From Methylophaga frappieri (GTDB lineage Bacteria > Pseudomonadota > Gammaproteobacteria > Nitrosococcales > Methylophagaceae): a stretch of DNA of 32,000 bases. Below, piece after piece: positions 2,664-26,240 of the stretch. The position numbers were made by a program, and so were the translations under genes. The DNA lies in the NCBI RefSeq assembly GCF_000260965.1, contig NC_017856.1, forward strand, positions 870,001-902,000. The letters run 5' to 3'. The notes beneath the pieces are model-generated. The model did not search any database. It saw only the letters and a list, made by a program, of their open reading frames with translations, and was not told where the DNA came from. Within the stretch, counting starts at the first letter, position 1; every line of letters starts with the position of its first letter.

Positions 2664-4321
2664 TGGCCGAATCTATCGGTAAAGGGCTCACCTCCGTCAA
2701 TCAGCCGCGCAAGATTAACCTGGCTGAAGAAATGGAGCTCTATGGCGTCGATGTCCCCCAGGACATCGGCGATGCCCAGCCGGATAAAGAACCGGTGTTT
2801 TTGCCATATCAGCAACGCTGGTTCGAAGATGAAAGCCAGATCATGATTGCTGAAAAAAGCCGTCGAACCGGTCTGACCTGGGCCGAAGCCGGCCGCAACG
2901 TGATGAACGCAGCCAAGCCCCGCCGTCGTGGTGGCTGCAATACCTTTTATGTCGGCAGCAAACAGGAAATGGCGCTGGAATACATCGCCGCCTGCGCTCT
3001 GTTTGCCAGGGCCTTCAATGAACTCGCTGAAGCCGATGTCTATGAGCAGACCTTCTGGGACGATAAGCGCAAGGAAGAGATCCTGACCTACATGATCCGC
3101 TTCCCGAAAACGGGCAGGAAAATCCAGGCGCTAAGCTCCCGGCCGAGTAACCTGCGTGGTCTGCAGGGTGATGTGGTCATCGATGAGGCGGCATTCCATG
3201 AATCACTGCAGGAGCTATTGAAAGCTGCTCTGGCTTTGACGATGTGGGGTAATAAAGTTCGACTCATCAGTACACATAACGGCGTTGATAACGACTTTAA
3301 CCAGTACATTCAAGATGCACGAGAAGGTCGCAAGGATTACAGCCTGCACCGAATCACTCTGGATGATGCGATCGCACAGGGACTATATAAGCGGATCTGC
3401 TTTGTCACTGGTCAGGAATGGTCTCAGGAGTCCGAAAAAGCATGGCGTGAGGGTCTCTACAAAAACGCACCAAACGCTGAGTCTGCTGATGAAGAGTATG
3501 GCTGTATTCCTAAGAAGTCCGGTGGCAACTACCTGACTCGTGTTCTGATTGAGGCCGCCATGGTGGCTGATCACTCAATCCCCATCCTGCGGTTCGAAGC
3601 ACCTAAAGACTTTGAAAGCTGGACAACGGAAATGCGTGAGGCCGAGATCGCTGACTGGTGTCAAAAGAACCTTCTGCCAGAACTTAAGAAGTTAAACCCG
3701 TCAGACCGCCATGTTTTTGGTGAAGACTTTGCCCGTCGTGGTGACTTGACGGTGTTTGTACCGTTGGCCATTAAGCCTGATCTTCGTAAGCGTGAGACCT
3801 TCAGGGTGGAGTTGAGGAATTTGCCTTATGAGCAGCAACGCCAAGTGATGTTTTATATCTGCGACCGATTGCCGCGTCGTGGAGGACTAGCCTTCGATGC
3901 CACTGGTAATGGTGGCTATCTGGCAGAACAAGCAGCCCTTAAGTATGGCCAGGGCATGGTCGATCAGGTTCATCTATCGTCTTCCTGGTACCACGAGTGG
4001 ATGCCAAAACTAAAAGGCGAATTCGAGTCATTCAATCTTGAGATAGCCCGACATCAGACCACGTTGGATGATTTGCTCTCCATCAAAGTCGAGAACGGTA
4101 TTCCCGTTATTGATAAAGGCCGGACAAAAGACTTGCAGTCAGGTGATGGCAAAGCAAAACGCCATGGTGACTTCGCTGTCGGCTTGGTTATGGCTATTCG
4201 CGCCTCCTGGATGGATGGCGGTGAAATTGATTTTATTGCCGTGCCTAAAGGTCATGAGCATGCGGATCTGGATGATGACGAAAACGACGATGCACGAGAC
4301 TTCGGAGGTGGCGCATGGTAG
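2663..4321 (+). CDS. Terminase large subunit (Mu gp28-like)
   Basis: 552 aa. Walker-B-like VVIDEAAFH. Positioned between small terminase and portal. ATGA-type overlap with the upstream gene. Confidence 0.85.
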   Translation: MAESIGKGLTSVNQPRKINLAEEMELYGVDVPQDIGDAQPDKEPVFLPYQQRWFEDESQIMIAEKSRRTGLTWAEAGRNVMNAAKPRRRGGCNTFYVGSKQEMALEYIAACALFARAFNELAEADVYEQTFWDDKRKEEILTYMIRFPKTGRKIQALSSRPSNLRGLQGDVVIDEAAFHESLQELLKAALALTMWGNKVRLISTHNGVDNDFNQYIQDAREGRKDYSLHRITLDDAIAQGLYKRICFVTGQEWSQESEKAWREGLYKNAPNAESADEEYGCIPKKSGGNYLTRVLIEAAMVADHSIPILRFEAPKDFESWTTEMREAEIADWCQKNLLPELKKLNPSDRHVFGEDFARRGDLTVFVPLAIKPDLRKRETFRVELRNLPYEQQRQVMFYICDRLPRRGGLAFDATGNGGYLAEQAALKYGQGMVDQVHLSSSWYHEWMPKLKGEFESFNLEIARHQTTLDDLLSIKVENGIPVIDKGRTKDLQSGDGKAKRHGDFAVGLVMAIRASWMDGGEIDFIAVPKGHEHADLDDDENDDARDFGGGAW

Positions 4322-5943
4322 CCAAGAATAAATATTTAAAGATGGTAGCGCAGCTATTTGGTGGTGCCGAGGAAGCGCTGGAAGACAAACAGACCAGCGA
4401 TGAGGGTGCAGGTAGTGCTGCTATTGGCCAACTGAAAAGAGAGTTTGCTGAGCATCCCAGTAAAGGTCTCACGCCAGCTAAATTGTATGACATTCTTGAG
4501 GCCGCTGAGCAAGGTGACATTAAAGCCCAGTCAGAGCTATTTGAGGATATGGAAGAGAAAGATCCGCAAATTGGTGCCGACATGGCCAAGCGTCGACAGT
4601 TGGCTGCAGAACTAGAGTGGCAGATAGTCCCGCCCGATAATCCAAGCGCTCAGGAAAAACGTGCCGCTGAACACGCCGCTGAAGTATTTAGTGGTCTTGA
4701 GGTCGAAGACCTGATCTTGGATCTTGGTACCGGCCTTGGTCATGGCTGGGCTAATTTAGAGCTGTCCTGGAATAACGATGGTGGTTTGCATTACATCGAG
4801 CAGCCAGAATTACGGCCTCACAGCTGGTTTAGATTGCATCCGGACAACCAGAACAAAATTACGCTGCGTGACAATTCAGCGACTGGAGCTGAGCTCTGGC
4901 CATTGGGCTGGGTGCCGCATCGCCATCGAGCTAAGCCTGGTTATGTGGCCAGAATGGGCCTACACCGGATGCTCGTGTGGCCATACCTTTTCCAGAACTA
5001 TGCGCTGGGTGATCTGGCTCAATTGCTGGAAATCTATGGCTTGCCTGCCCGATTGGGTAAATATCCAAGCGGTGCAACGCCAAAAGAAAAAGCGACACTG
5101 CTTAATGCTGTTGTGCGTATGGGTAAAGACGCTGCAGGCATTATCCCGCAGGGAATGGAAATAGATTACCTGGAAGCAGCGGGTAAAGGTGCCAGTGCTG
5201 ATGTCTATAAATTGATGATGGACTGGTGTGAACGCAGCAAGGCAAAGGTCATACTGGGTGGCACGCTGACCAGTGGTACCGGCGAGGGCACCAATACCAA
5301 TGCACTCGGTAATGTGCATGAACGCGGTCAGATGAGCCTGATTCGTTCAGATGTCCGTCAGTATGCCGGCAGCATCAAAAAGCACATGCTCTGGCCGATG
5401 GCGGCGCTGAACTTCGGCATTGATTCGCCGCAACGTGCACCACGTTTTTACCTGGATACCGGTGAAACCGAGGGGCTGGAAAAACTGGCTGACACACTAC
5501 CTGTATTCGTTGATATGGGTATGCGCATCCCTTCATGGTGGGCGCATGAAAAAAGCGGCATTCCGAAAGCCGGAGATCAAGACGAGGTTTTACTATCAGT
5601 GGAATCAAAGCTCACTGGACAGGATGCCGCTGTCCTGAAAGCCCAGGCCGCTGCGACAGCAATCGCTGCAGCGACAACGGAGACACCCGTACCAAGTCCA
5701 CCTGATCAAATGCTGGCCAGGACACGCGAAAATCTACAGCCAGTCACAAATGCTTGGATCAACCAGGTCCGTGAGCTTGCTAACCAGGTAGACAGCCTGG
5801 ATGCGTTGCGCGAAGCTTTGCTCGACCGGTATCCAGAAATGACACTGGATCAGTTTGCAAATGCCCTGGCTGATGCGATGGCCACGGCGCACCTCGCTGG
5901 TCGTAACGAAGTGACAGAGGAAAACCCTGATGCCCTCCGTTAG
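4315..5943 (+). CDS. Portal protein, Mu gp29-like (DUF935)
   Basis: 542 aa. The N-terminal region ...LFEDMEEKDPQIGADMAKRRQLAAELEWQIVPP is typical of DUF935 portals. Gene order TerL-portal-MuF. Confidence 0.85.
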   Translation: MVAKNKYLKMVAQLFGGAEEALEDKQTSDEGAGSAAIGQLKREFAEHPSKGLTPAKLYDILEAAEQGDIKAQSELFEDMEEKDPQIGADMAKRRQLAAELEWQIVPPDNPSAQEKRAAEHAAEVFSGLEVEDLILDLGTGLGHGWANLELSWNNDGGLHYIEQPELRPHSWFRLHPDNQNKITLRDNSATGAELWPLGWVPHRHRAKPGYVARMGLHRMLVWPYLFQNYALGDLAQLLEIYGLPARLGKYPSGATPKEKATLLNAVVRMGKDAAGIIPQGMEIDYLEAAGKGASADVYKLMMDWCERSKAKVILGGTLTSGTGEGTNTNALGNVHERGQMSLIRSDVRQYAGSIKKHMLWPMAALNFGIDSPQRAPRFYLDTGETEGLEKLADTLPVFVDMGMRIPSWWAHEKSGIPKAGDQDEVLLSVESKLTGQDAAVLKAQAAATAIAAATTETPVPSPPDQMLARTRENLQPVTNAWINQVRELANQVDSLDALREALLDRYPEMTLDQFANALADAMATAHLAGRNEVTEENPDALR

Positions 5944-10984: not shown

Positions 10985-11488
10985 ATGAGCTATATCTCTC
11001 ACATTCAGCTTACAGAGCGACCCGGAGCCAGGGAGCTGGCCGAAGTCGCAACTGCAGAGCATGAAACGCTGGTCGACTACGCACTGATGGAGGCCACCCT
11101 GATCGGTGCCGATCGCAGTGCCTGGTCAGCGGATGAAATTGCTGTCGCTGATGATGCCTTGCAACGGATTGATGATGCTGTCAGTGATGCTGAATCCCTG
11201 ATTGATGGTTTCCTGGCTCAACGCGGTTATCTGCCTCTTGACCCGGTGCCTGGTGTTGTCACCACCTGGGCCAGAGCAATAACTCGCTACTACCTGCACA
11301 AACACAGACTAGGCACGGATGCACAGGACCCGATCGTTCGTGATTACCAGGATGCAATGAAACTGCTCAAGCTGACAGCCGAGGGCAAGTTCAGCCTGGG
11401 TGCTGATGACCCGGTGGCCAGCGCTGACAGCATGGATGTTCAGTTTGAATCCGGTACCCGCGTTTGGGATGGCCGAGGCCGCTACTGA
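10985..11488 (+). CDS. Mu gp36-like (DUF1320-type) head completion/connector protein
   Basis: 167 aa at the correct position after the capsid module. The family call comes from size and N-terminal pattern and was not searched. Confidence 0.6.
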   Translation: MSYISHIQLTERPGARELAEVATAEHETLVDYALMEATLIGADRSAWSADEIAVADDALQRIDDAVSDAESLIDGFLAQRGYLPLDPVPGVVTTWARAITRYYLHKHRLGTDAQDPIVRDYQDAMKLLKLTAEGKFSLGADDPVASADSMDVQFESGTRVWDGRGRY

Positions 11489-11937
11489 TGAATGAGCCAC
11501 TGGATACCAGTCTCATCGAGGAGCGCCTGAAGGCCCAGATCTCGAATGACGTGCTTCAGAAAATAGGATCTGCAGCAGACTTTGCAGCGGTCACCAGCAT
11601 GAGTGGATTTCGTATCGGCAGCGCATACGTGATTCTGGTGGATGAAAGCCGGATTAATCCCAGTGAGTCCGATCGCAACCGGGGCAAGCAACAGGTGAGA
11701 TCGACATTTGGCGTTATCACCGTGGCCAGAAACTTCAGAGGTCAGACCGGCGCTGAAGCCCAGCAGGAACTAAGACCCTTTATCGGCCTTATCCGTACTG
11801 CCCTGGTCGGATGGTCCCCGGTTTCTCCCTGGCGGCCAATCACCTGGGAAGACGGCAAGGTCATCGACTATGACAAAAGCACTTTACTGTGGGCGGACAC
11901 GTTTACGACCACGCACTTTATCAGCAACGGAGGTTAA
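11488..11937 (+). CDS. Mu gp37-like (DUF1834-type) neck / tail-completion protein
   Basis: ATG 11488 overlaps the upstream TGA (ATGA). 149 aa. The track start at 11464 is rejected. Confidence 0.55.
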   Translation: MNEPLDTSLIEERLKAQISNDVLQKIGSAADFAAVTSMSGFRIGSAYVILVDESRINPSESDRNRGKQQVRSTFGVITVARNFRGQTGAEAQQELRPFIGLIRTALVGWSPVSPWRPITWEDGKVIDYDKSTLLWADTFTTTHFISNGG

Positions 11938-12130: not shown

Positions 12131-12889
12131 ATGAAAGATTTCTCACTTCAAGGTAAAGTCTGGCTCGGTGAAAACCTCAATGGCCAGCCTGGGGCAATGA
12201 ACTGGGTTAACGATGCGGCATTGCTGCAGATTTCAGCATCTTCTGAAGAAGAGCAGCGTCGTGAAAGTTGGTCAGGCAAACGTAATATCTCAGCGACTCT
12301 GAGCACTGGTAGCGAGGTGAGTTTTACCCTGACACTCAATCACGCCAATGCTAAGAACTTGGCATTGGGTCTGTATGGCACAGTAAATACGGTAGCTTCA
12401 GATAGTGTTACGGCTGAAGCCTTCCCGACTGGTCTGGTAGCTGATGATCATGTTGTATTAGATCGTGGCAACATCAGCAATCTGGTCATTGAAGACAGCG
12501 CCGGTTCGCCAGTGACCCTTGTGTTAGACACTAACTATGAAATTGCCGATGCGGTTGGTGGTGTTATCAGGATTCTCGACCCTGCCTCACTGACTCAGCC
12601 ATTTAATGCTGACTATGACCATGGCGCCAGCACTGACGTGACGATGTTCACCCAGAAAGCGCCTGTTCGCTATCTCATCATGACTGGTGAGAATACCGTT
12701 GACGGCAGCGCCGATAAAGTGCGCGTTCGGCTCTACAAGCTGAAATTCAATCCGGTCAACACACTTGACCTGATTAATGACCAGTTCGGTGAAATTCAGC
12801 TGACTGGTACCGCCATCCTCGATACCAATAATGAGCCATCTGCAGATCTGGGTGGCTTTGGCCGTATTGAGCTGCTGGAGGCGAGTTAA
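12131..12889 (+). CDS. Major tail (tube) protein, siphovirus type
   Basis: AAGGAG SD, 252 aa. Lies immediately upstream of the frameshifted chaperone pair and tape measure (canonical tube-G/GT-TMP order). Confidence 0.65.
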   Translation: MKDFSLQGKVWLGENLNGQPGAMNWVNDAALLQISASSEEEQRRESWSGKRNISATLSTGSEVSFTLTLNHANAKNLALGLYGTVNTVASDSVTAEAFPTGLVADDHVVLDRGNISNLVIEDSAGSPVTLVLDTNYEIADAVGGVIRILDPASLTQPFNADYDHGASTDVTMFTQKAPVRYLIMTGENTVDGSADKVRVRLYKLKFNPVNTLDLINDQFGEIQLTGTAILDTNNEPSADLGGFGRIELLEAS

Positions 12890-13389
12890 TGGCTCGTAAG
12901 GCATCCAAAACAGTCAATAACGATCTGGAAGTTCTGCACCCTGAGCAGGTCATTACGCTCAGGGGACAGCAGATCACGGTGCGGGAGTATGGCTTTGTCG
13001 AAAGTCTGAACCTACGGCCACTGATGAAACCCTTTATCAACGATCTACATGATTTGCTTGCCGTTGGGGGGGATATACCGCTTGACGAAGTATTTGATTT
13101 GATCGCAAAGCATCAGAATGCCTGTCTTGAACTGGCAGCGATGGCAGCAAATATTGACCAGGCATTTGTCGAATCGCTTTCGTCCGCCGACGGTGAAACA
13201 CTGCTAATGGCCTGGTGGGGTGCCAACGGCCCTTTTTTCAGTCGTCAGCTGCAGATGCAGCTGTTCAGTCGACGAAACACAAACCGTACACAACAAGACC
13301 AGGACTCAGATGGGCAGAAATCTACACAGAGCTCATCGCAGCAGGACACGACCCGGTCAGACTTGGAGAGTACACCGAGCGACAGCTGA
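12889..13389 (+). CDS. Tail assembly chaperone (lambda G analogue), zero-frame product
   Basis: Sits between tube and tape measure and contains the slippery heptamer. The zero-frame tail after the slip site is low-complexity (SRQLQMQLFSRRNTNRTQQDQDSDGQKSTQSSSQQ...). Confidence 0.65.
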   Translation: MARKASKTVNNDLEVLHPEQVITLRGQQITVREYGFVESLNLRPLMKPFINDLHDLLAVGGDIPLDEVFDLIAKHQNACLELAAMAANIDQAFVESLSSADGETLLMAWWGANGPFFSRQLQMQLFSRRNTNRTQQDQDSDGQKSTQSSSQQDTTRSDLESTPSDS

Positions 13390-13517
13390 ATTTATATTTC
13401 GATGCAGCCATAAGTCGTGACCGACGCAAGCGAGCTGACATGGTATTGGACACCAATAATGCCTTTGCCGGCGGAAAAGATTTGAAAAAGCATTTGCAGT
13501 TTTTGAAAAAGAGTTAG
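12889..13517 (+). CDS. Tail assembly chaperone -1 frameshift fusion (lambda GT analogue): 12889-13238 joined to 13239-13517 after a -1 slip
   Basis: The -1 frame is open from the slip site to 13517 and reads like real protein (...LRWAEIYTELIAAGHDPVRLGEYTERQLNLYFDAAISRDRRKRA...). Confidence 0.6.
13233..13239 (+). promoter_or_regulatory. Programmed -1 ribosomal frameshift slippery heptamer T TTT TTC
   Basis: Zero-frame codons are CCT TTT TTC (13231-13239), giving X XXY YYZ = T TTT TTC. The -1 frame continues CAG TCG... at 13239. Confidence 0.6.
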
Positions 13518-13657
13518 TTACAGGAAGAGATAGCGACCAGTCAGTGCGCCAACACTGGCTGGCCGTCGAGTCACAGGCCGTAACCTGTGAGCCAACCAGG
13601 GCTACCCCGCCGCGTCGACGCAGCCGGGTCAGCCTATCATTATTTAATGAGGCTCAC

Positions 13658-13849
13658 ATGATTGAAGTACGTTGTGGTGACTGTGGACGTTTGCTGGCCA
13701 GAGCCAGTTTTAGTCGAATTGAAATCAAGTGTCCGCGTTGTAAGACACTGAATAGCTTGAGGGCCATAGAGCCTCCAACCCAAGCACCAGCGAGTGCCAA
13801 CGTTGAGGTAAATCATGGCCAAGCCAATACTTCCATGGATGGGCGGTAA
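13658..13849 (+). CDS. com: Com-like zinc-finger protein (Mu Com family translational activator)
   Basis: MIEVRCGDCGRLLARASFSRIEIKCPRCKTLN has Cys at 6/9/25/28 (Mu Com: 6/9/26/29) and shares the IRCxxCxxLL...IEIxCPRCK pattern. GAGG SD at 13649-13652. The 3' end overlaps the methyltransferase start. Confidence 0.8.
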   Translation: MIEVRCGDCGRLLARASFSRIEIKCPRCKTLNSLRAIEPPTQAPASANVEVNHGQANTSMDGR

Positions 13850-14576
13850 AGCCCGTTTAGCAAAAGATATCCTGCCACTTTTCCCTGAGCATAATTGCTA
13901 TGTTGAGGTGTTTGCTGGTGGTGCCGCTTTGTTTTATAAAAAGCAGCCATCCAAGCACGAGATCATTAATGATATCAATGGTGAGTTAATCAACTTGTAT
14001 CGTGTGGTTCAGCATCACTTAGAAGAGTTTGTGCGACAGTTTAAATGGGCATTATCTAGTCGACAGATATTTGAGTGGGAGAAGCTGAAGCAGCCTGAAA
14101 CACTGACCGATATCCAACGCGCTGCGAGGTTCTATTACCTGCAAAAATCAGCCTTTGGCGCGCGTGTCGATAATCAGACTTTTGGAACGGCAACTACTGC
14201 CTCACCAAGATTAAACCTGCTTAGATTGGAGGAAGATCTAAGTGCCGCACATTTACGTTTAGCCAGAACAACGATTGAGAATATTGACTGGGCAAAATGT
14301 ATCGAGAAATATGACAGGCCACATACCCTTTTTTACCTTGATCCTCCCTATTATGAAACGGCTGGCTATGGTCAAAGCTTTGAGCGTGAGCAATACGCCT
14401 TGATGTCTGAATTAGCCAAAAGCATCAAAGGCAAAATGATCATCAGCATCAATGACCATGAATTTATCCGAGAGCAGTTTGCTGGTCTTGCTCATCGTTC
14501 GTTAAACATCAATTACACAGTGGCCGGAAATCATAAGAAAAAACCTGCTAAGGAGCTGCTCATCTGGAACTGGTGA
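13815..14576 (+). CDS. Dam-family (D12 class) N6-adenine DNA methyltransferase
   Basis: N-terminus KPILPWMGGKARLAKDILPLFP, motif I VEVFAGGAALF, motif IV FYLDPPY. 253 aa. GAGG SD at 13805-13808. Confidence 0.9.
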   Translation: MAKPILPWMGGKARLAKDILPLFPEHNCYVEVFAGGAALFYKKQPSKHEIINDINGELINLYRVVQHHLEEFVRQFKWALSSRQIFEWEKLKQPETLTDIQRAARFYYLQKSAFGARVDNQTFGTATTASPRLNLLRLEEDLSAAHLRLARTTIENIDWAKCIEKYDRPHTLFYLDPPYYETAGYGQSFEREQYALMSELAKSIKGKMIISINDHEFIREQFAGLAHRSLNINYTVAGNHKKKPAKELLIWNW

Positions 14577-14606
14577 AAATCTAAATAGTTTTGCCCCGAT
14601 TCAAAC

Positions 14607-14628
14607 GACACCTATATATATAGGTGTC
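14607..14628. repeat. Perfect 22-bp palindrome GACACCTATATATATAGGTGTC 30 nt after the methyltransferase stop (hairpin / possible moron terminator or protein-binding site)
   Basis: GACACCTATA + TA + TATAGGTGTC is an exact reverse complement. No T tract follows. Confidence 0.5.
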
Positions 14629-14726
14629 ATCATCCCTTCCATAACACACCGTGACCAGGGCAGAACGCTGCCCACGACAAGTCCGCCCTGGCATCTGGGT
14701 GCAGGTGCCAGGTTTATTGGAGGTGA

Positions 14727-17510
14727 ATGGTGGCCGATAAAAATCTTGATCTCGCATTACGCATTAGAACTGACCTTAAACAAGCGGTCGGTGAACTGAA
14801 TGCGCTCGAAAGCGAACTGACAAGTTTAGATGGTGCTGGCAAAAAAGCCGGTGCGGGCCTGGATAAAACGGCCTCTTCAGCCAACAAGGCGATAGTAAAT
14901 TTCGGCCGGATGACGCCAGCAGTCAATAATGCCGAGCAGGGTCTGCTCAGATTCCAGCGTATTGCGAACCAACTCAACAAAACTATGCCTGGCATTGCGC
15001 CTGGTGCATTGACTACCGGCATTCGTGAACAGAGCAGACAAATGGGCGCTGCCACACTGTCAGTCAAGCAATATCGCCAGGCTATGCGCCAGTTGCCGGC
15101 ACAAATCACCGATATCGGCACCAGCTTGGCTTCAGGCATGCCGATCTGGTTAGTGGCCATTCAACAAGGTGGCCAGATCCGCGATTCGTTTGGCGGTACC
15201 CGCGAGGCCGGTAAAGCGTTGCTGTCTACTATCAAGCCGATGCCTATTCTGTATGGCAGTATTGCAGCTGCAGCATTGTCAGTCGTTGTCGCTCATGAAA
15301 AAGGCGCAGCTGAGACAAGGCGCTTTAACGAGGCGCTGATTAACACTGGCAATGCCTCCGGTACCAGCACTGACAAGCTGAATGAGATGGCTGAACGTCT
15401 GGATAATATTGCTGGCACCCGTCGAAATGCGGCAGCTGCACTGGCTGAAATCACTGAGACAGGCAAGTTTACCGAACAACAAATTGAGCAAATCGGTCTC
15501 ACTGCTATCCAGATGCAGATAGCTACTGGTCGCGCGGTGAGCGCAACGGTCGAAGAGTTTGTTGCTTTATCTGAAGACCCGGTTGAAGCCATCACTAAAC
15601 TGAATGACCAGTATCACTTCCTGGATGCGGCGATTTATTCCAACATCAAATCACTGCAAGACCAGGGCAAAGAAGTCGAAGCGATCGATCTGGCCATCAA
15701 TACCTACGCTAACACTATGCAGCAACGCGCTGATGAGGTTGCTGGTAATCTTGGGATACTTGAACGGGGCTGGAAAGCTATAAAAAATGCAGCTGCTGAA
15801 GGCTGGGATGCCATGCTTGATATCGGGCGTGCCGATACGCTACAAGAAAGGCTGGATCAAGTTGAGTCACAATTAAACAGACGTATGCGGGGGCCGGCAA
15901 ATCAGCAGTCTGAGCGACGTGCTGAGCTGGAAGCTGAACGTCGAAGATTGCAACTGCTTATTCAGCAACGGGATGAGCTGGCACGTAATGAATCAGCACA
16001 GAAAAAAGCCGATGCTGAAGCCATCAGTGCTATGCAGGCAATCGACAAGCTCACCCAGTTAAATCTCAGCAATGAAGAAAAGCGCGTGCTGGCAATCAAG
16101 GAATATAAGGACCAGCTGGAAGCGATTCGTAATGTTAACCCGAACGATGAACGCCTGGATGATGCAAGGGTGGCCAGAAATATCGCTGGCATTAATGCCC
16201 GTTATCAAGATCGAAATTCTGGCAGTGACCGGGATCGCGCCGCCGAACAAGCTGCCCGTGATGCTGAGCGGTTGGCCGAATCTCAACAGCGTTATGTCGA
16301 ACAATTAGAACGCACAGCAGCCACTGCGAATAAAACAGCAGCTGAACTGCGTGCCTACGAGCTAACCGAACAATCACTGACTGGTGAACTTAAGCAACGT
16401 GCAACCGCTGCGTTGTCAGCCATTGACGCGCAGGAAAAAATGCAGCAGGCAATGGAAGACGGTCGGCAATTGTCGTCTATTCAGACTCAGATTTTACAAC
16501 TCGAAGGCAATACGATGGCAGCGCGCCAGGCCCAGCTTGATCAGCAGTTTGGCGAGTTGCGGGATCGGTTCGTGCAGCGTGGCGATCAGGCGGGTGCGGC
16601 ATTTATAGACAAGCTAATTAATCTTGAGATGGCTCGCACTCGATTGACTCAGGTGCAAGATGAAATCAGTCGGATATTGGCTGATCAGCAGCGTGTTGAA
16701 GATTCAATTAATGTCCAACAGGATGCTGGTCTGATTAATGAAGTTGAGGCGCGAAAGCAGATCCTCGATCTGCATAAACAAACCGCAGCAGTGCTGGAAC
16801 AGCAGCGGCCAGTGCTGGAGAAACTGGCACAAATGCCAGGCGTTATCGGTCAGAATGCAGCAGCTGCCTTGGCTGCTTTGGATACTCAGGCATTACGACT
16901 TAAAACCACGACAACGGAGCTCGCAACAACTGTAAAACAAGGGCTTGAGCAGGGTTTAAACAATGCGATTACCGGTCTTGCTGATGGCACCCTGACCCTG
17001 CGTGATGCTATCGGCACGCTTGTTGAGTCGATTGGCCGCGCTCTGATTCAGCTCGCTGCACAACAGGCAGCAGTGTCGATTGTTGGCGGTTTTGGCGGTG
17101 GTGGTTTTTTGGATTTCCTGGGCTTTGCAGATGGTGGTTGGACCGGGCCAGGCAGCAAATACCAGCCAGCAGGCATTGTTCATGCCGGTGAGTATGTTCA
17201 ACCTCAGTCAGTGATGCGGGAGCCCGGTGCCATGGCATTCATGGAGTCGTTTCGTCAAAACGGTATGGCCGCTCTGAGTCGCTTTCGTGGGTATGCTGAG
17301 GGTGGTCTAGTTGGCGGTTCAGGGCATCTGCCTGAGCAATCTGGCGGTCAAGCACGTAAATCCGGCGCGACTCATCTCAATCAGTACATCGCATTGGACC
17401 CTCAGGAACTGGCTGACTCGATAGCGAGTACACCAAATTTTGGCCAGAGCATTATGACTGTGATCCGGACAGAGCGCCGGCAGGTATCAACAATTTTGGA
17501 TGGTGGCTGA
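14727..17510 (+). CDS. Tail tape measure protein
   Basis: 927 aa, highly helical, Ala/Gln/Glu/Leu-rich, with a Gly-rich C-terminal part ([23 protein letters not shown] ... [10 protein letters not shown]). Follows the chaperone pair. Confidence 0.85.
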
Positions 17511-24317: not shown

Positions 24318-24366
24318 TAGTTCTATTCTGGAAAAGGTTTTTATTATTTGTAACAGATAATAAAGT

Positions 24367-24410
24367 TAAATTATCGCGCACCCAGGTTGGTTTTATCGCG
24401 CGCGGCTACA
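24367..24410 (+). repeat. Mu attR-like terminal transposase-binding repeats (R2-like 24367-24388, R1-like 24389-24410) ending in the terminal CA
   Basis: The exact 9-mer TTATCGCGC occurs at 24371-24379 and 24393-24401, 22 bp apart. The terminal GGTTTTATCGCGCGCGGCTACA resembles the Mu right end ...CGTTTTTCGTGCGCCGCTTCA. Confidence 0.7.
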
Positions 24411-24449
24411 GCAAGTTATAAAAAAATAGCAGATTAATGAAATTAATTC

Positions 24450-24478
24450 TTGCAAATGTGAATTATTATCATTAATAT
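24450..24478 (+). promoter_or_regulatory. Sigma70-type promoter: -35 TTGCAA, 17-nt spacer, -10 TAATAT
   Basis: TTGCAA at 24450-24455 and TAATAT at 24473-24478, with AT-rich upstream DNA. Confidence 0.45.
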
Positions 24479-24484
24479 TAACAA

Positions 24485-24561
24485 CAGATGGTCGCCACGG
24501 TAACCATCTCTCTCTGACACTGACAGACTTTATGCCAGCCCTCGGGCTGGCATTTTTTTTA
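24485..24561 (+). ncRNA. Candidate ~77-nt small RNA or leader/attenuator transcript (5' hairpin, single-stranded CTGACACTGACA stretch, intrinsic terminator)
   Basis: A promoter lies just upstream. A 7-bp hairpin forms from 24487-24493 and 24504-24510. The terminator is at 24535-24561. No protein ORF explains the unit. Confidence 0.35.
24535..24561 (+). terminator. Canonical rho-independent terminator
   Basis: GCCAGCC-CTCG-GGCTGGC (7-bp GC-rich stem) followed by A and T8 (24554-24561). Confidence 0.65.
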
Positions 24562-24588
24562 TCTGCCTCACATCAACTATCTCCATGT

Positions 24589-24594
24589 ATAATC
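24589..24594 (+). promoter_or_regulatory. Consensus -10 hexamer TATAAT (preceded by TG) upstream of ybiT; candidate proximal ybiT promoter
   Basis: TGTATAAT at 24587-24594. No good -35 is present. It lies 50 nt upstream of the TTG start. Confidence 0.3.
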
Positions 24595-24644
24595 ACGCCT
24601 TTTTGGCAGAAATCTGTCTCTAGCTTAATCTCAGGATCCACACC

Positions 24645-26240
24645 TTGCTTAGTACAGCCAATATCACCATGCAGTTCGGCGCCAAGCCGCTTTTCGAAAA
24701 CGTTTCTGTCAAGTTTGGCGAAGGAAACCGTTATGGCCTCATTGGCGCCAATGGCTGCGGAAAATCGACTTTTATGAAAATTCTTGCAGGATTGCAAGAG
24801 CCTAGTTCAGGCAATGTTGTTCGTGATCCCAATGAGTCATTTGCTGTCTTGAAACAAGACCAGTTTGCTTATGAAAGCGACCGCGTCATTGACGTAGTGA
24901 TTATGGGACAACCGCAACTCTGGGCAGTGCACCGTGAAAGAGAGCGTATTTATAGTCTGCCAGAAATGAGTGAAGAAGATGGTCTGAAAGTGGCAGAACT
25001 TGAGGGCCAATATGCTGAGCTAGATGGCTATACCGCTGAATCTCGTGCTGGAGAATTATTGCTTGGCGTCGGTATTCCAGTTGCCCAGCATTACGGGCCA
25101 ATGAGTGAAATTGCGCCAGGCTGGAAATTGCGTATTTTACTGGCGCAGGTATTGTTTGCGGATCCAGATATCCTACTGCTCGATGAACCCACTAACCACT
25201 TGGATATTAATACCATTCGCTGGCTGGAAGGCGTATTAAATCAGCGCAACAGCACCATGATCATCATCTCTCATGATCGCCACTTTCTGAATAGCGTCTG
25301 CACACACATGGCGGACATGGATTATGGAGAACTTCGCCTCTATCCCGGCAATTATGATGATTACATGATTGCCTCGACACAGGCCCGTGAACGCTTACAG
25401 GCTGATAACGCGCGTAAAAAAGCGCAAATTAAAGAGCTACAAGAGTTTGTTTCTCGCTTTTCCGCCAATGCTTCCAAAGCCAAACAAGCCACCTCTCGGC
25501 AAAAACAAATCGATAAAATCCAATTGGAAGATATGAAACCTTCCAGTCGGGTTAATCCTTTTATTCGATTTCAGCAAGATAAAAAGCTGTTTCGTAATGC
25601 ATTGGAAGTGACGCATCTGACACAGGGTTACGCCGATGAGCAGCCGCTGTTTAAAAAACTGAATTTGAGGGTCGAAGTCGGTGAAAAAATTGCCATTATT
25701 GGCCCGAATGGCATTGGTAAAACGAGTCTGGTTAAAACGTTGATTGGCGATTTGGCGGCGATTTCCGGAGAAATTAAATGGTCTGAAAATGCCAACATTG
25801 GTTACTACGCACAAGACCACGATCACCAATTCAAACAAAATTTAACCTTGTTCGAGTGGATGCAACAATGGGCCGGTTCTGGAGATGATGAGCAAGTGAT
25901 TCGCGGTACCTTGGGGCGTTTGTTGTTTTCGGGCTCCCAAATCGACAAAAAAGTAAATGTCTTATCCGGTGGCGAAAAAGGACGGATGCTGTTCGGCAAG
26001 TTGATTCTGCAAAAGCCGAATATTCTGGTGATGGATGAACCTACTAATCACATGGATATGGAATCCATTGAATCGCTTAATTACGCACTGGAACAATTTG
26101 ATGGCACCTTGCTGTTTGTCTCGCATGACCGTGAATTTGTCTCCTCCTTAGCGGATCGGATTCTGGATATTCAAACCGATGGCGTGACTGACTTTCATGG
26201 CAATTATGAAGCGTACTTACAGCATCTAGGCGTTAATTAA
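24645..26240 (+). CDS. ybiT: ABC-F family ATPase YbiT (two ABC domains, no TM domain)
   Basis: [49 protein letters not shown]... is collinear with E. coli YbiT as I recall it, including the N-terminus (supporting TTG 24645 with AGGA at 24633-24636). There are two Walker A and signature (LSGGEK) sets. Confidence 0.9.

Follow-up and report, generated by a model that had tools for sequence, protein, structure and literature searches.

Within a 32,000-nucleotide stretch of the Methylophaga frappieri genome (contig NC_017856.1, positions 870,001 to 902,000; the whole stretch is called the window below), a Com-type regulator gene (com) and an overlapping gene for a Dam-family N6-adenine DNA methyltransferase lie among the tail genes of a prophage. 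The gene order at the locus runs from the tail terminator and the major tail protein over the tail assembly chaperone G and its T frame (GT) to this cassette and then to the tape measure gene. The prophage is a B3-like siphovirus with head genes of the Mu type (portal, MuF-like protein and major head protein), whose early and transposition region falls outside the window; homologues of its tail chaperone are found only in B3-like and D3112-like transposable siphophages. An earlier note on this DNA had named the tail-gene neighbours on both sides and the lengths of the spacers flanking the pair, 140 nucleotides (nt) upstream (13518-13657) and 150 nt downstream (14577-14726), and both are borne out by the table of open reading frames (ORFs), Pfam and PHROG. 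Its description of these spacers as non-coding fits in length, but the upstream one is no filler: it is a conserved structured element. The features are collected in Table 1.

Table 1. Features of the cassette and of the adjoining genes, with positions in the window.
Feature	Position	Strand	Basis and details
Tail assembly chaperone G	12889-13389	+	PF20336 / phrog_1442 'tail assembly chaperone'; with the T frame, on the left flank of the cassette
T frame of GT	13215-13517	+	phrog_8022; 47-48% identity with the T frame of IMG/VR relatives
Whole cassette (leader, com, methyltransferase)	13518-14580	+	Borders set by DNA homology (blastn)
Predicted structured RNA leader: three-way junction P0/P1/P2 and hairpin P3	13523-13640	+	Covariance model R1
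P0, helix closing the junction	13529-13534 with 13601-13606	+	Both-side changes in 6/6 pairs; 85% of cells paired
P1 hairpin, conserved loop CGCCAA	13537-13546 with 13553-13562	+	Compensatory changes in 9/10 pairs
P2 hairpin	13572-13577 with 13584-13589	+	Compensatory changes in 4/6 pairs
P3 hairpin, sequence variable	13607-13614 with 13619-13626	+	Compensatory changes in 8/8 pairs
Leader segment UGUGAGCC (3' strand of P2 and next bases)	13586-13593	+	Complementary to GGCUCACA (13651-13658), com start region
com translation start region	13649-13660	+	Shine-Dalgarno (SD) GAGG 13649-13652, AUG 13658-13660; read from the sequence
com, 63-residue Com-type zinc ribbon	13658-13849	+	PF10122; phrog_6417/13819; aligned with B3 ORF47 and Mu Com
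Predicted inhibitory helix (alternative fold) over methyltransferase SD and AUG	13755-13824	+	Minimum-energy fold
Predicted Com-operator hairpin A	13761-13774	+	Stem 13761-64/13771-74, loop CAUAGA, motif CC-AUA-GAG 13764-13771; RNAalifold
Predicted Com-operator hairpin B	13784-13797	+	Stem 13784-87/13794-97, loop CAGCGA, motif CC-AGC-GAG 13787-13794; RNAalifold
Dam-family (D12 class) N6-adenine DNA methyltransferase, 253 residues	13815-14576	+	SD GAGG 13805-13808; PF02086, TIGR00571, phrog_56
Downstream spacer with three hairpins	14577-14726	+	Fold z -3.25; outside the shared cassette
Tape measure protein	14727-17510	+	PF06791, E 2e-74; phrog_24; right neighbour of the cassette

Judged by its profile matches, the first gene of the pair encodes a genuine Com homologue with putative roles in RNA binding and translational activation. 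Its product matches the Pfam family Zn_ribbon_Com (PF10122) with an E-value of 5.3e-15 and 55.1 bits (cut-off 22.9), which upholds the Com call of the earlier note, and the PHROG profiles 'translational regulator' and 'gpCom' with 1e-18 and 2e-10, respectively. The four cysteines (Cys 6/9/25/28) stand where that note had placed them and are invariant in an alignment of 13 sequences, in which the tail of the protein is variable. Identity amounts to 48% with ORF47 of phage B3 and to 38% with Mu Com. The 35-nt overlap of com with the methyltransferase ORF is seen in the ORF table as had been stated, and an overlap of 28-53 nt occurs in most related com-bearing loci. A GTG-start ORF of 101 codons (13544-13849), which extends com upstream in frame, was rejected as the start of com because it overlaps the covarying leader described below; it most likely arose from mechanical ORF calling. 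The window contains no second Com and no Mom homologue (tblastn, E>4), in line with the earlier statement that Mu-type mom is absent.

The enzyme is recognised by PF02086 (E 3e-30, 106.1 bits, cut-off 22) and by the 'Dam family' model TIGR00571 (122.7 bits, cut-off 114.85), and its translation reads EVFAGGAALF at motif I, the S-adenosylmethionine motif, and LDPPYYE at the catalytic motif IV (DPPY), so the D12-class assignment made from FAGG and DPPY is confirmed. It shares 64% identity with ORF48 of B3, approximately 66% with gp27 of Burkholderia phage phiE125 and 79-81% with the copies in Methylophaga and in viral contig L092. The closest solved relatives, DpnM and E. coli Dam, are matched with E-values of 1e-14 to 1e-11 only. 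With a GC content of 43.7% and an observed-to-expected CpG ratio of 0.74, the gene is the lowest-GC stretch of the prophage part of the window (mean 51.6%, standard deviation 2.3; z about -3.5; 0.6% of composition windows are as low). The earlier figure of 38% was too low, although the gene's deviating composition was seen correctly. Likewise, the label AT-rich, given to the cassette, applies to the methyltransferase gene only, as neither com (49.5%) nor the upstream spacer (59%) is atypical.

A com/D12-methyltransferase pair at the junction of GT and the tape measure gene is a known arrangement, already present in the literature for B3. This phage (NC_006548) was found via tblastn of phage records, and its annotation lists a major tail protein, a tail assembly chaperone, two tiny ORFs, ORF47, ORF48 and the tape measure protein. 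ORF47 is annotated as a 'translational regulator similar to Mu Com' and overlaps ORF48, a 'DNA methyltransferase'; the two are given as Com and Dam methylase after Braid et al. 2004, as that work is cited in PMC3299994. The cassette of the window lies approximately 10 kb short of the right end of the prophage (24.3-24.6 kb; host genes follow from approximately 24.6 kb onward) and not at Mu's right-end location after the tail-fibre genes. The non-canonical locus pointed out in the earlier note is nevertheless already documented, since B3 carries the pair between chaperone and tape measure (PMC3299994). The match with the B3-type com-dam cassette holds feature by feature (leader, com, overlapping D12 enzyme and site), with an identical type of leader RNA upstream (L001 5701-5817) and twin hairpins with Com motifs, on a homologous phage backbone. 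The two differ in that identity is just 64% for the methyltransferase and 48% for Com, that the overlap in B3 is 31 nt instead of 35 nt, that the host is another bacterium, of approximately 50% GC, and that the window's cassette is nearer to those of Mu-like myophages, the closest fetched relatives coming from Methylophaga. In Cazares 2014, on the core and accessory genome of the D3112 group, com or dam is not mentioned.

Similarly, Com homologues precede adenine methyltransferases other than Mom in FluMu, Pnm1 and Haemophilus influenzae biotype aegyptius (Hia5), for which a Com-type regulation was proposed (PMC3299994). The earlier idea of a rewired Com switch is correct insofar as a Com homologue is coupled to a conventional D12 enzyme, but not as a novelty, given that this is documented for B3, FluMu, Pnm1 and Hia5. 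The enzymes of FluMu, Pnm1 and Hia5 are non-specific, and their genes are placed at the mom position, unlike that of the window. Since the 1000 sequences with the highest similarity to Hia5 do not include B3 ORF48 (PMC3299994), the Hia5-type enzymes and ORF48 form different subfamilies. With Mu com-mom, the window shares a homologous Com zinc ribbon whose gene overlaps that of the modification enzyme downstream, a CC(N)3GAG hairpin whose hexaloop is closed by a C-G pair, beside a start-masking structure, and a second motif nearer the start. However, Mu carries Mom in a right-end operon instead of a D12 methyltransferase inside the tail operon, its masking hairpin is local whereas in the window a long-range helix is predicted in which the first Com-motif region takes part, and the leader RNA is absent from Mu. 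The enzymes phiE125 gp27, phi1026b gp26 and KS9 gp25 form one clade with that of the window (approximately 66% identity). In phiE125, the leader RNA lies directly upstream of the methyltransferase gene (L002 4860-4978) as well, but these phages are lambda-like, lack com and carry the cassette after the lysis genes. Taken by itself, the gene pair is routine, namely another adenine methylase under putative Com control at the locus known from B3. What goes beyond the precedents is the comparative support for a testable RNA mechanism of Com control over a non-Mom enzyme, and a structured leader that travels with DNA-modification genes of three unrelated enzyme families.

Because the DNA homology began at 13518, a profile of the upstream spacer was built, which matched 48 loci, among them com-less methyltransferase genes and com-mom cassettes. 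In a MAFFT alignment of 32 leader sequences, fitted to no structure, five helices were counted (P1 as two). In these helices, 82.3% of the cells are paired, compared to 64.7% in shuffled alignments (reached in 0 of 500) and 31-41% in slid controls. Changes on both sides of a pair occur in 27 of the 30 pairs, amounting to 189 such cells against 66±6 in the shuffles. The single-sequence minimum-energy fold of the leader differs (long-range), and only the centroid recovers P1-P3. The covariance model R1 has a single match in the window (94.3 bits, E 2e-23) and matches 126 other fetched loci, approximately 95 of which were not in the seed alignment. In the 120 of these loci that were anchored on a methyltransferase or on Com, the gene that directly follows the leader is always com or a com-less methyltransferase gene. 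The other six came from scanning viral contigs with a loose DNA pattern of the leader core, in which the model confirmed 6 of 80 listed stretches (at least 120 were found), most being chance matches, so that these counts are no measure of prevalence. Carriers include B3, phiE125, L003 (4855-4974) and Shewanella phage MuM16-1, while R1 has no match in Mu or in the cassette-less relatives of B3. Downstream of leader and com, D12 methyltransferases, N6_N4 methyltransferases (PF01555) or Mom (PF25680) are encoded. A further, large group of viral contigs (L103-L134, e.g., L103 4001-4922) carries com (72-75% identity over the zinc ribbon) before an N6_N4-type methyltransferase gene without the leader RNA, so leader and com are separable modules. 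In the well-studied phages B3 and phiE125, the leader is unannotated or annotated as small ORFs. For B3, ORF46 (26 codons) falls wholly within the leader RNA and is probably not a real gene, and ORF45, which is the T frame of the GT chaperone, overlaps the first leader bases only (L001 5573-5798). At the junction of P1 and P2, the leader of the window reads CC-GUC-GAG (13563-13570), a Com-type motif that is probably due to chance, as most other leaders have CAAC there.

One could suppose that these 140 nt act as DNA, as a late promoter, an activator or operator site or a recombination site, rather than as an RNA leader. P3 is nearly always a spacerless perfect palindrome, a form typically seen where dimeric proteins bind, the left border of the cassette coincides with the element, and in Mu, com is preceded by a complex mom promoter (PMC3299994). 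We nonetheless regard a DNA element as improbable. The pairs in the five helices are compensated while the sequence varies, and approximately 25 leader cells are G-U pairs, which fit an RNA read from the coding strand and would be A-C on the other strand. Moreover, a segment of the leader covaries with its own ribosome-binding region approximately 60 nt downstream, no sigma-70-like promoter was found, and the element is always found in coding-strand orientation, just ahead of the first start codon. The palindromes at P3, seen by eye in most loci (GCGUCGACGC, CUCUCGCGAGAG, GUCAUCGAUGAC, GCUCACGUGAGC and others), may hint at RNA dimerisation or at a role at the DNA level, as an RNA hairpin needs no palindrome.

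The covariation with the ribosome-binding region involves the segment UGUGAGCC, which is complementary to GGCUCACA at the com start. Across loci, the two sides shift in step (GUGAGCC/GGCUCAC, GCAAGCC/GGCUUGC, GCAAACC/GGUUUGC, CGUAGGC/GCCUACG, ACGGCAU/AUGCCG). For 114 leaders, the predicted duplex with the own start region is stronger than that with the start regions of other loci (-12.7 versus -9.7 kcal/mol; 0 of 2000 permutations), and the P1 region, taken as a control, shows no such difference. Because this pairing covaries locus by locus, the leader has the look of a translational switch, in that P2 and the start region would compete for one strand, i.e., a predicted expression platform with mutually exclusive pairing at the ribosome-binding site. 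A second pairing, of AGCCU (13632-13636) with AGGCU in the SD region of com, was set aside: it is possible, but both sides are invariant, so covariation cannot test it. The architecture resembles translational riboswitches and leaders with long-range coupling, which likewise have a multi-helix junction, conserved unpaired bases and a downstream segment that pairs either within the fold (here P2) or with the ribosome-binding site. It departs from that class in its palindromic P3, in having no Rfam match and in starting a few bases after the upstream stop codon in most loci. The latter closeness is compatible with ribosome-driven coupling and equally with simple genome compaction.

Tentatively, and with a little less than even confidence, we propose that the leader represents an undescribed class of cis-regulatory RNA that gates the first gene of DNA-modification cassettes in phages of Beta- and Gammaproteobacteria. 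Candidate triggers are a small molecule, a protein of phage or host, and the ribosomes finishing the upstream late gene. Rfam 15 gave no relevant match to the leader alone at E<=10, nor to the leaders of seven other loci at E<=0.1. A 'D12-methyl' RNA motif is said to have been described by Weinberg and co-workers in 2017; its identity with the leader is neither shown nor fully excluded. The term is absent from the searchable literature text, and no Rfam model of that name matched the leader. If the class is real, com-bearing cassettes would form a two-tier RNA cascade, the leader controlling Com and Com controlling the enzyme. Should the leader be a switch, this would explain how potentially harmful DNA-modifying enzymes can be inserted in varied late operons and yet be correctly timed, and it would make the leader a portable regulatory part and a marker for anti-restriction cargo.

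The second predicted tier resides within com itself. Nowacka et al. 2019 (PMC6483171) defined the Com site experimentally: Com recognises the motif 5'-CC(N)2-3GAG-3' within a six-base loop. The hairpin is short, is closed by a C-G pair and adjoins the element masking the start of mom. Among 42 distinct com/D12-methyltransferase junctions gathered from genomes and viral contigs, 39 contain at least one copy of this motif and approximately 25 contain two, placed near -51 and -29 relative to the start codon, compared to a chance expectation of approximately 0.1 per sequence by rough arithmetic. An RNAalifold consensus on an alignment of 27 junctions places the motifs in a tandem of two hairpins with stems of 4 bp and loops of 6 nt. 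Jointly, the hairpins have 94.4% of their cells paired versus 86.3% in shuffled alignments (0/500), and the covariation score is 0.358 versus 0.198 (0/500); slid controls stay at or below 52% paired. In hairpin B, three of the four stem pairs covary (GCAC/GUGC, GCGC/GCGC, AUGC/GCAU). The sequence GAGCCUCC, in the region of hairpin A, is kept by the B3-like group in a reading frame different from that of the window, which suggests that selection acts on the RNA and not on the protein.

The same region is predicted to take part in an alternative helix that covers the methyltransferase SD and AUG. Its pairs are 13755-58:13821-24, 13762-67:13815-20, 13769-70:13813-14, 13771-75:13805-09 and 13777-79:13802-04. 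GGCCAU (13762-67) thereby faces AUGGCC (13815-20) and GCCUC (13771-75) faces GAGGU (13805-09), with hairpin B at the tip of the helix. To open positions -13 to +3 of the start takes 12.2 kcal/mol; this drops to 8.3±1.4 when the upstream sequence is shuffled (0/60 as high) and to 8.8 kcal/mol when the Com motifs are blocked. Over 40 junctions, the mean cost is 10.7 for the native sequences, 7.4 for shuffles and 7.8 kcal/mol with the motifs blocked. The seven GUG-start junctions all have AGCCACGAG...CUCGUGGCU, which form 8-9 contiguous pairs, but as they all stem from related Halomonas-group genomes, they represent few independent events. The earlier note had placed the methyltransferase AUG in a local hairpin of CAUGG (13814-13818) with CCAUG (13833-13837). 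These pentamers are indeed complementary, but would form a 5-bp stem with a 14-nt loop that appears in neither the minimum-energy nor the centroid folds of the 81-nt and 141-nt contexts, and the AUG's conserved partner in relatives lies upstream (GGCCAU or AGCCAC). This makes the local hairpin highly improbable. Translational gating by Com, which that hairpin was meant to explain, is nonetheless plausible in view of the conserved Com motifs and the start-occluding structure. Overall, operator hairpins and start-masking helix are predictions supported by comparison, not proven, as occlusion is missing in about one third of the junctions and weak in B3.

Turning to the distribution of the cassette, blastn finds 72-73% identity with prophage copies in Methylophaga thiooxydans and with the IMG/VR contigs L092 and L102. 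This DNA homology spans 13518-14580 only, from the GT stop to the methyltransferase stop, and the flanks are unrelated. Near-identity DNA searches with 13300-14900 against phage records and E. coli genomes gave no match, and distant blastn with leader and com returned short fragments only. In 80 genomic loci with close relatives of the methyltransferase (62-79% identity), the tail genes of the window are near none. In the nearest relative, Methylophaga thiooxydans (methyltransferase 79%, Com 65%), com and the methyltransferase gene follow the baseplate and tail-fibre genes, which is the 'mom position' of Mu, and in L128 the cassette likewise follows the tail-fibre genes. The com-less form stands after the lysis genes in phiE125. 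By contrast, the GT/tape-measure junction is empty in four relatives, i.e., PM105 (of B3's genus), JBD25, phiSHP3 and D3112. The two closest viral contigs (L085 and L086, 50-52% major-tail identity), the only two viral relatives that a locus search with the major tail protein alone returned, hold unrelated small ORFs there. The junction is a recurrent cargo slot. Since the homology stops at the borders, the contexts vary and the junction is empty or otherwise filled in relatives, the cassette is, on this comparison, horizontally mobile accessory cargo. This agrees with the accessory ('moron') status that had been assigned to it before the relatives were surveyed.

The identical gene order in B3 (chaperone, leader, com, dam, tape measure) and the homologous tail proteins of the two phages would also suit a core feature of B3-type phages, inherited vertically from a common ancestor that already had the pair at this junction. 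We judge this quite unlikely. Not only do PM105, JBD25, phiSHP3 and D3112 leave no room for the pair and two closer relatives hold other ORFs, but the enzyme and Com of the window are also nearer to those of cassettes at the right ends of Mu-like myophages (79-81% and 64-66%, respectively) than to those of B3, which argues against simple vertical inheritance. Structural proteins of the window and B3 share 36-39% identity only. In addition, DNA homology ends exactly at the cassette borders and the GC content is anomalous.

Several observations on these cargo sites stand on their own. The ORFs at the junction of the two viral relatives (L085 7399-8463, L086 7420-7985) include one with a lipoprotein-type signal (MKKLLMIAVVGAVLAGC) and one that is membrane-like. 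In L141 (3876-4949), leader, com and methyltransferase lie in the head module, with the MuF-like protein on one side and the head protease on the other; in D3112-like phages, the MuF/head-protease region is where anti-CRISPR genes are kept. At least eight scaffolds of Methylophaga thiooxydans DMS010 (L005-L012) carry the same end of a Mu-like prophage plus the cassette, several copies lying at scaffold ends; they could be multiple transposed copies or assembly repeats.

As to transcription, no promoter-like (sigma-70-like) site was found where 2.1 would be expected by chance, so the cassette does not look like a classical self-contained moron. In the downstream spacer, stable hairpins are predicted at 14607-14628 (a 22-nt perfect palindrome), 14658-14673 and 14687-14712, the last being a terminator-like stem followed by UUUAUU just ahead of the tape-measure ribosome-binding site. 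No fetched locus has a homologue of this spacer. As promoter-like sites are missing and the sole terminator-like hairpin lies outside the shared cassette, the latter is probably co-read with the late operon.

Taken together, we consider it likely that 13518-14580 is a mobile three-part DNA-modification cassette in a late tail operon, gated in two steps by the leader and by Com. The cassette would be transcribed together with the late tail genes, and the leader would, as the covariation suggests, decide whether com is translated. Com would then bind its own hairpins; since this binding would be incompatible with the inhibitory helix, the methyltransferase start would be freed as in Mu com-mom, a step for which homology and in silico energetics form the basis. 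The enzyme would modify phage DNA late in infection. Its purpose would most likely be to protect progeny DNA from restriction, with the lysogen spared unscheduled methylation. All steps of this mechanism rest on comparative and thermodynamic computation.

A different possibility is that the methyltransferase is active in the lysogen as an orphan methylase, serving conversion, epigenetics or defence of the chromosome, with com and the RNA structures irrelevant or vestigial. Only 22 of the 83 loci of the methyltransferase clade have com, and a single Methylophaga assembly contributes eight of these 22 as copies. The phiE125 relative is reportedly active in lysogens. Against this, com is intact in the window, with its four cysteines and a family-level match, operator motifs and hairpins are conserved with covariation, and promoter-like sites were not found. 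The com-less copies, furthermore, retain the leader directly before the methyltransferase start, which argues for regulated rather than constitutive translation. We give an orphan methylase active in the lysogen a low probability.

The gating may also be real and the purpose a different one, namely phage DNA metabolism (packaging, control of replication or transposition, or evasion of mismatch repair) instead of anti-restriction. The enzyme is a member of the Dam family, its gene sits within a morphogenesis operon, and P1 Dam is needed for pac cleavage. GATC is not avoided in the window either (150 observed versus approximately 125 expected). On the other hand, Mom is a dedicated anti-restriction enzyme, and a leader and com module of the same kind precedes both Mom and unrelated N6_N4 methyltransferases, suggesting that the common property is a DNA modification that must be timed. 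The cassette is also dispensable in close relatives. A role in DNA metabolism is therefore unlikely in our assessment.

Several points weigh against the cassette being gated in two steps. Since Com of Haemophilus sputorum and RNA of Mu served to define the Com motif, the specificity of Com may differ here. The operator lies within coding sequence, and part of its conservation may be protein-driven. About one third of the junctions occlude the start no better than their shuffled versions do, with a z-score of 0.5 in B3 and negative values in L128 and L137, and the significance of single-sequence folds is modest (z -1.7 and -2.1). For ORF48 of B3, enzyme activity had not been shown as of Drozdz et al. 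(PMC3299994). The methyltransferase of the window scores 56.8 bits against the E. coli Dam equivalog NF008152, far under its cut-off of 441; given this score and the distance to the solved Dam and DpnM, GATC specificity is not to be assumed. Finally, the lack of promoter-like sites together with a terminator-like hairpin right before the tape measure gene blurs the transcription context.

Two minor observations concern the remainder of the prophage. Its right end (24320-24645) adjoins a gene for an ABC-F type ATPase, and in a Methylophaga prophage copy (L005 7975-9399), a gene for an ABC-transporter ATPase lies approximately 1.2 kb past the cassette, possibly by coincidence. PHROG 209 labels the product of 11464-11937 as 'portal protein', whereas Pfam identifies it as the tail terminator (PF23840, E 7e-38). 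The actual portal gene is at 4315-5943, and the tail terminator is mislabelled identically in the RefSeq annotations of B3 and PM105.

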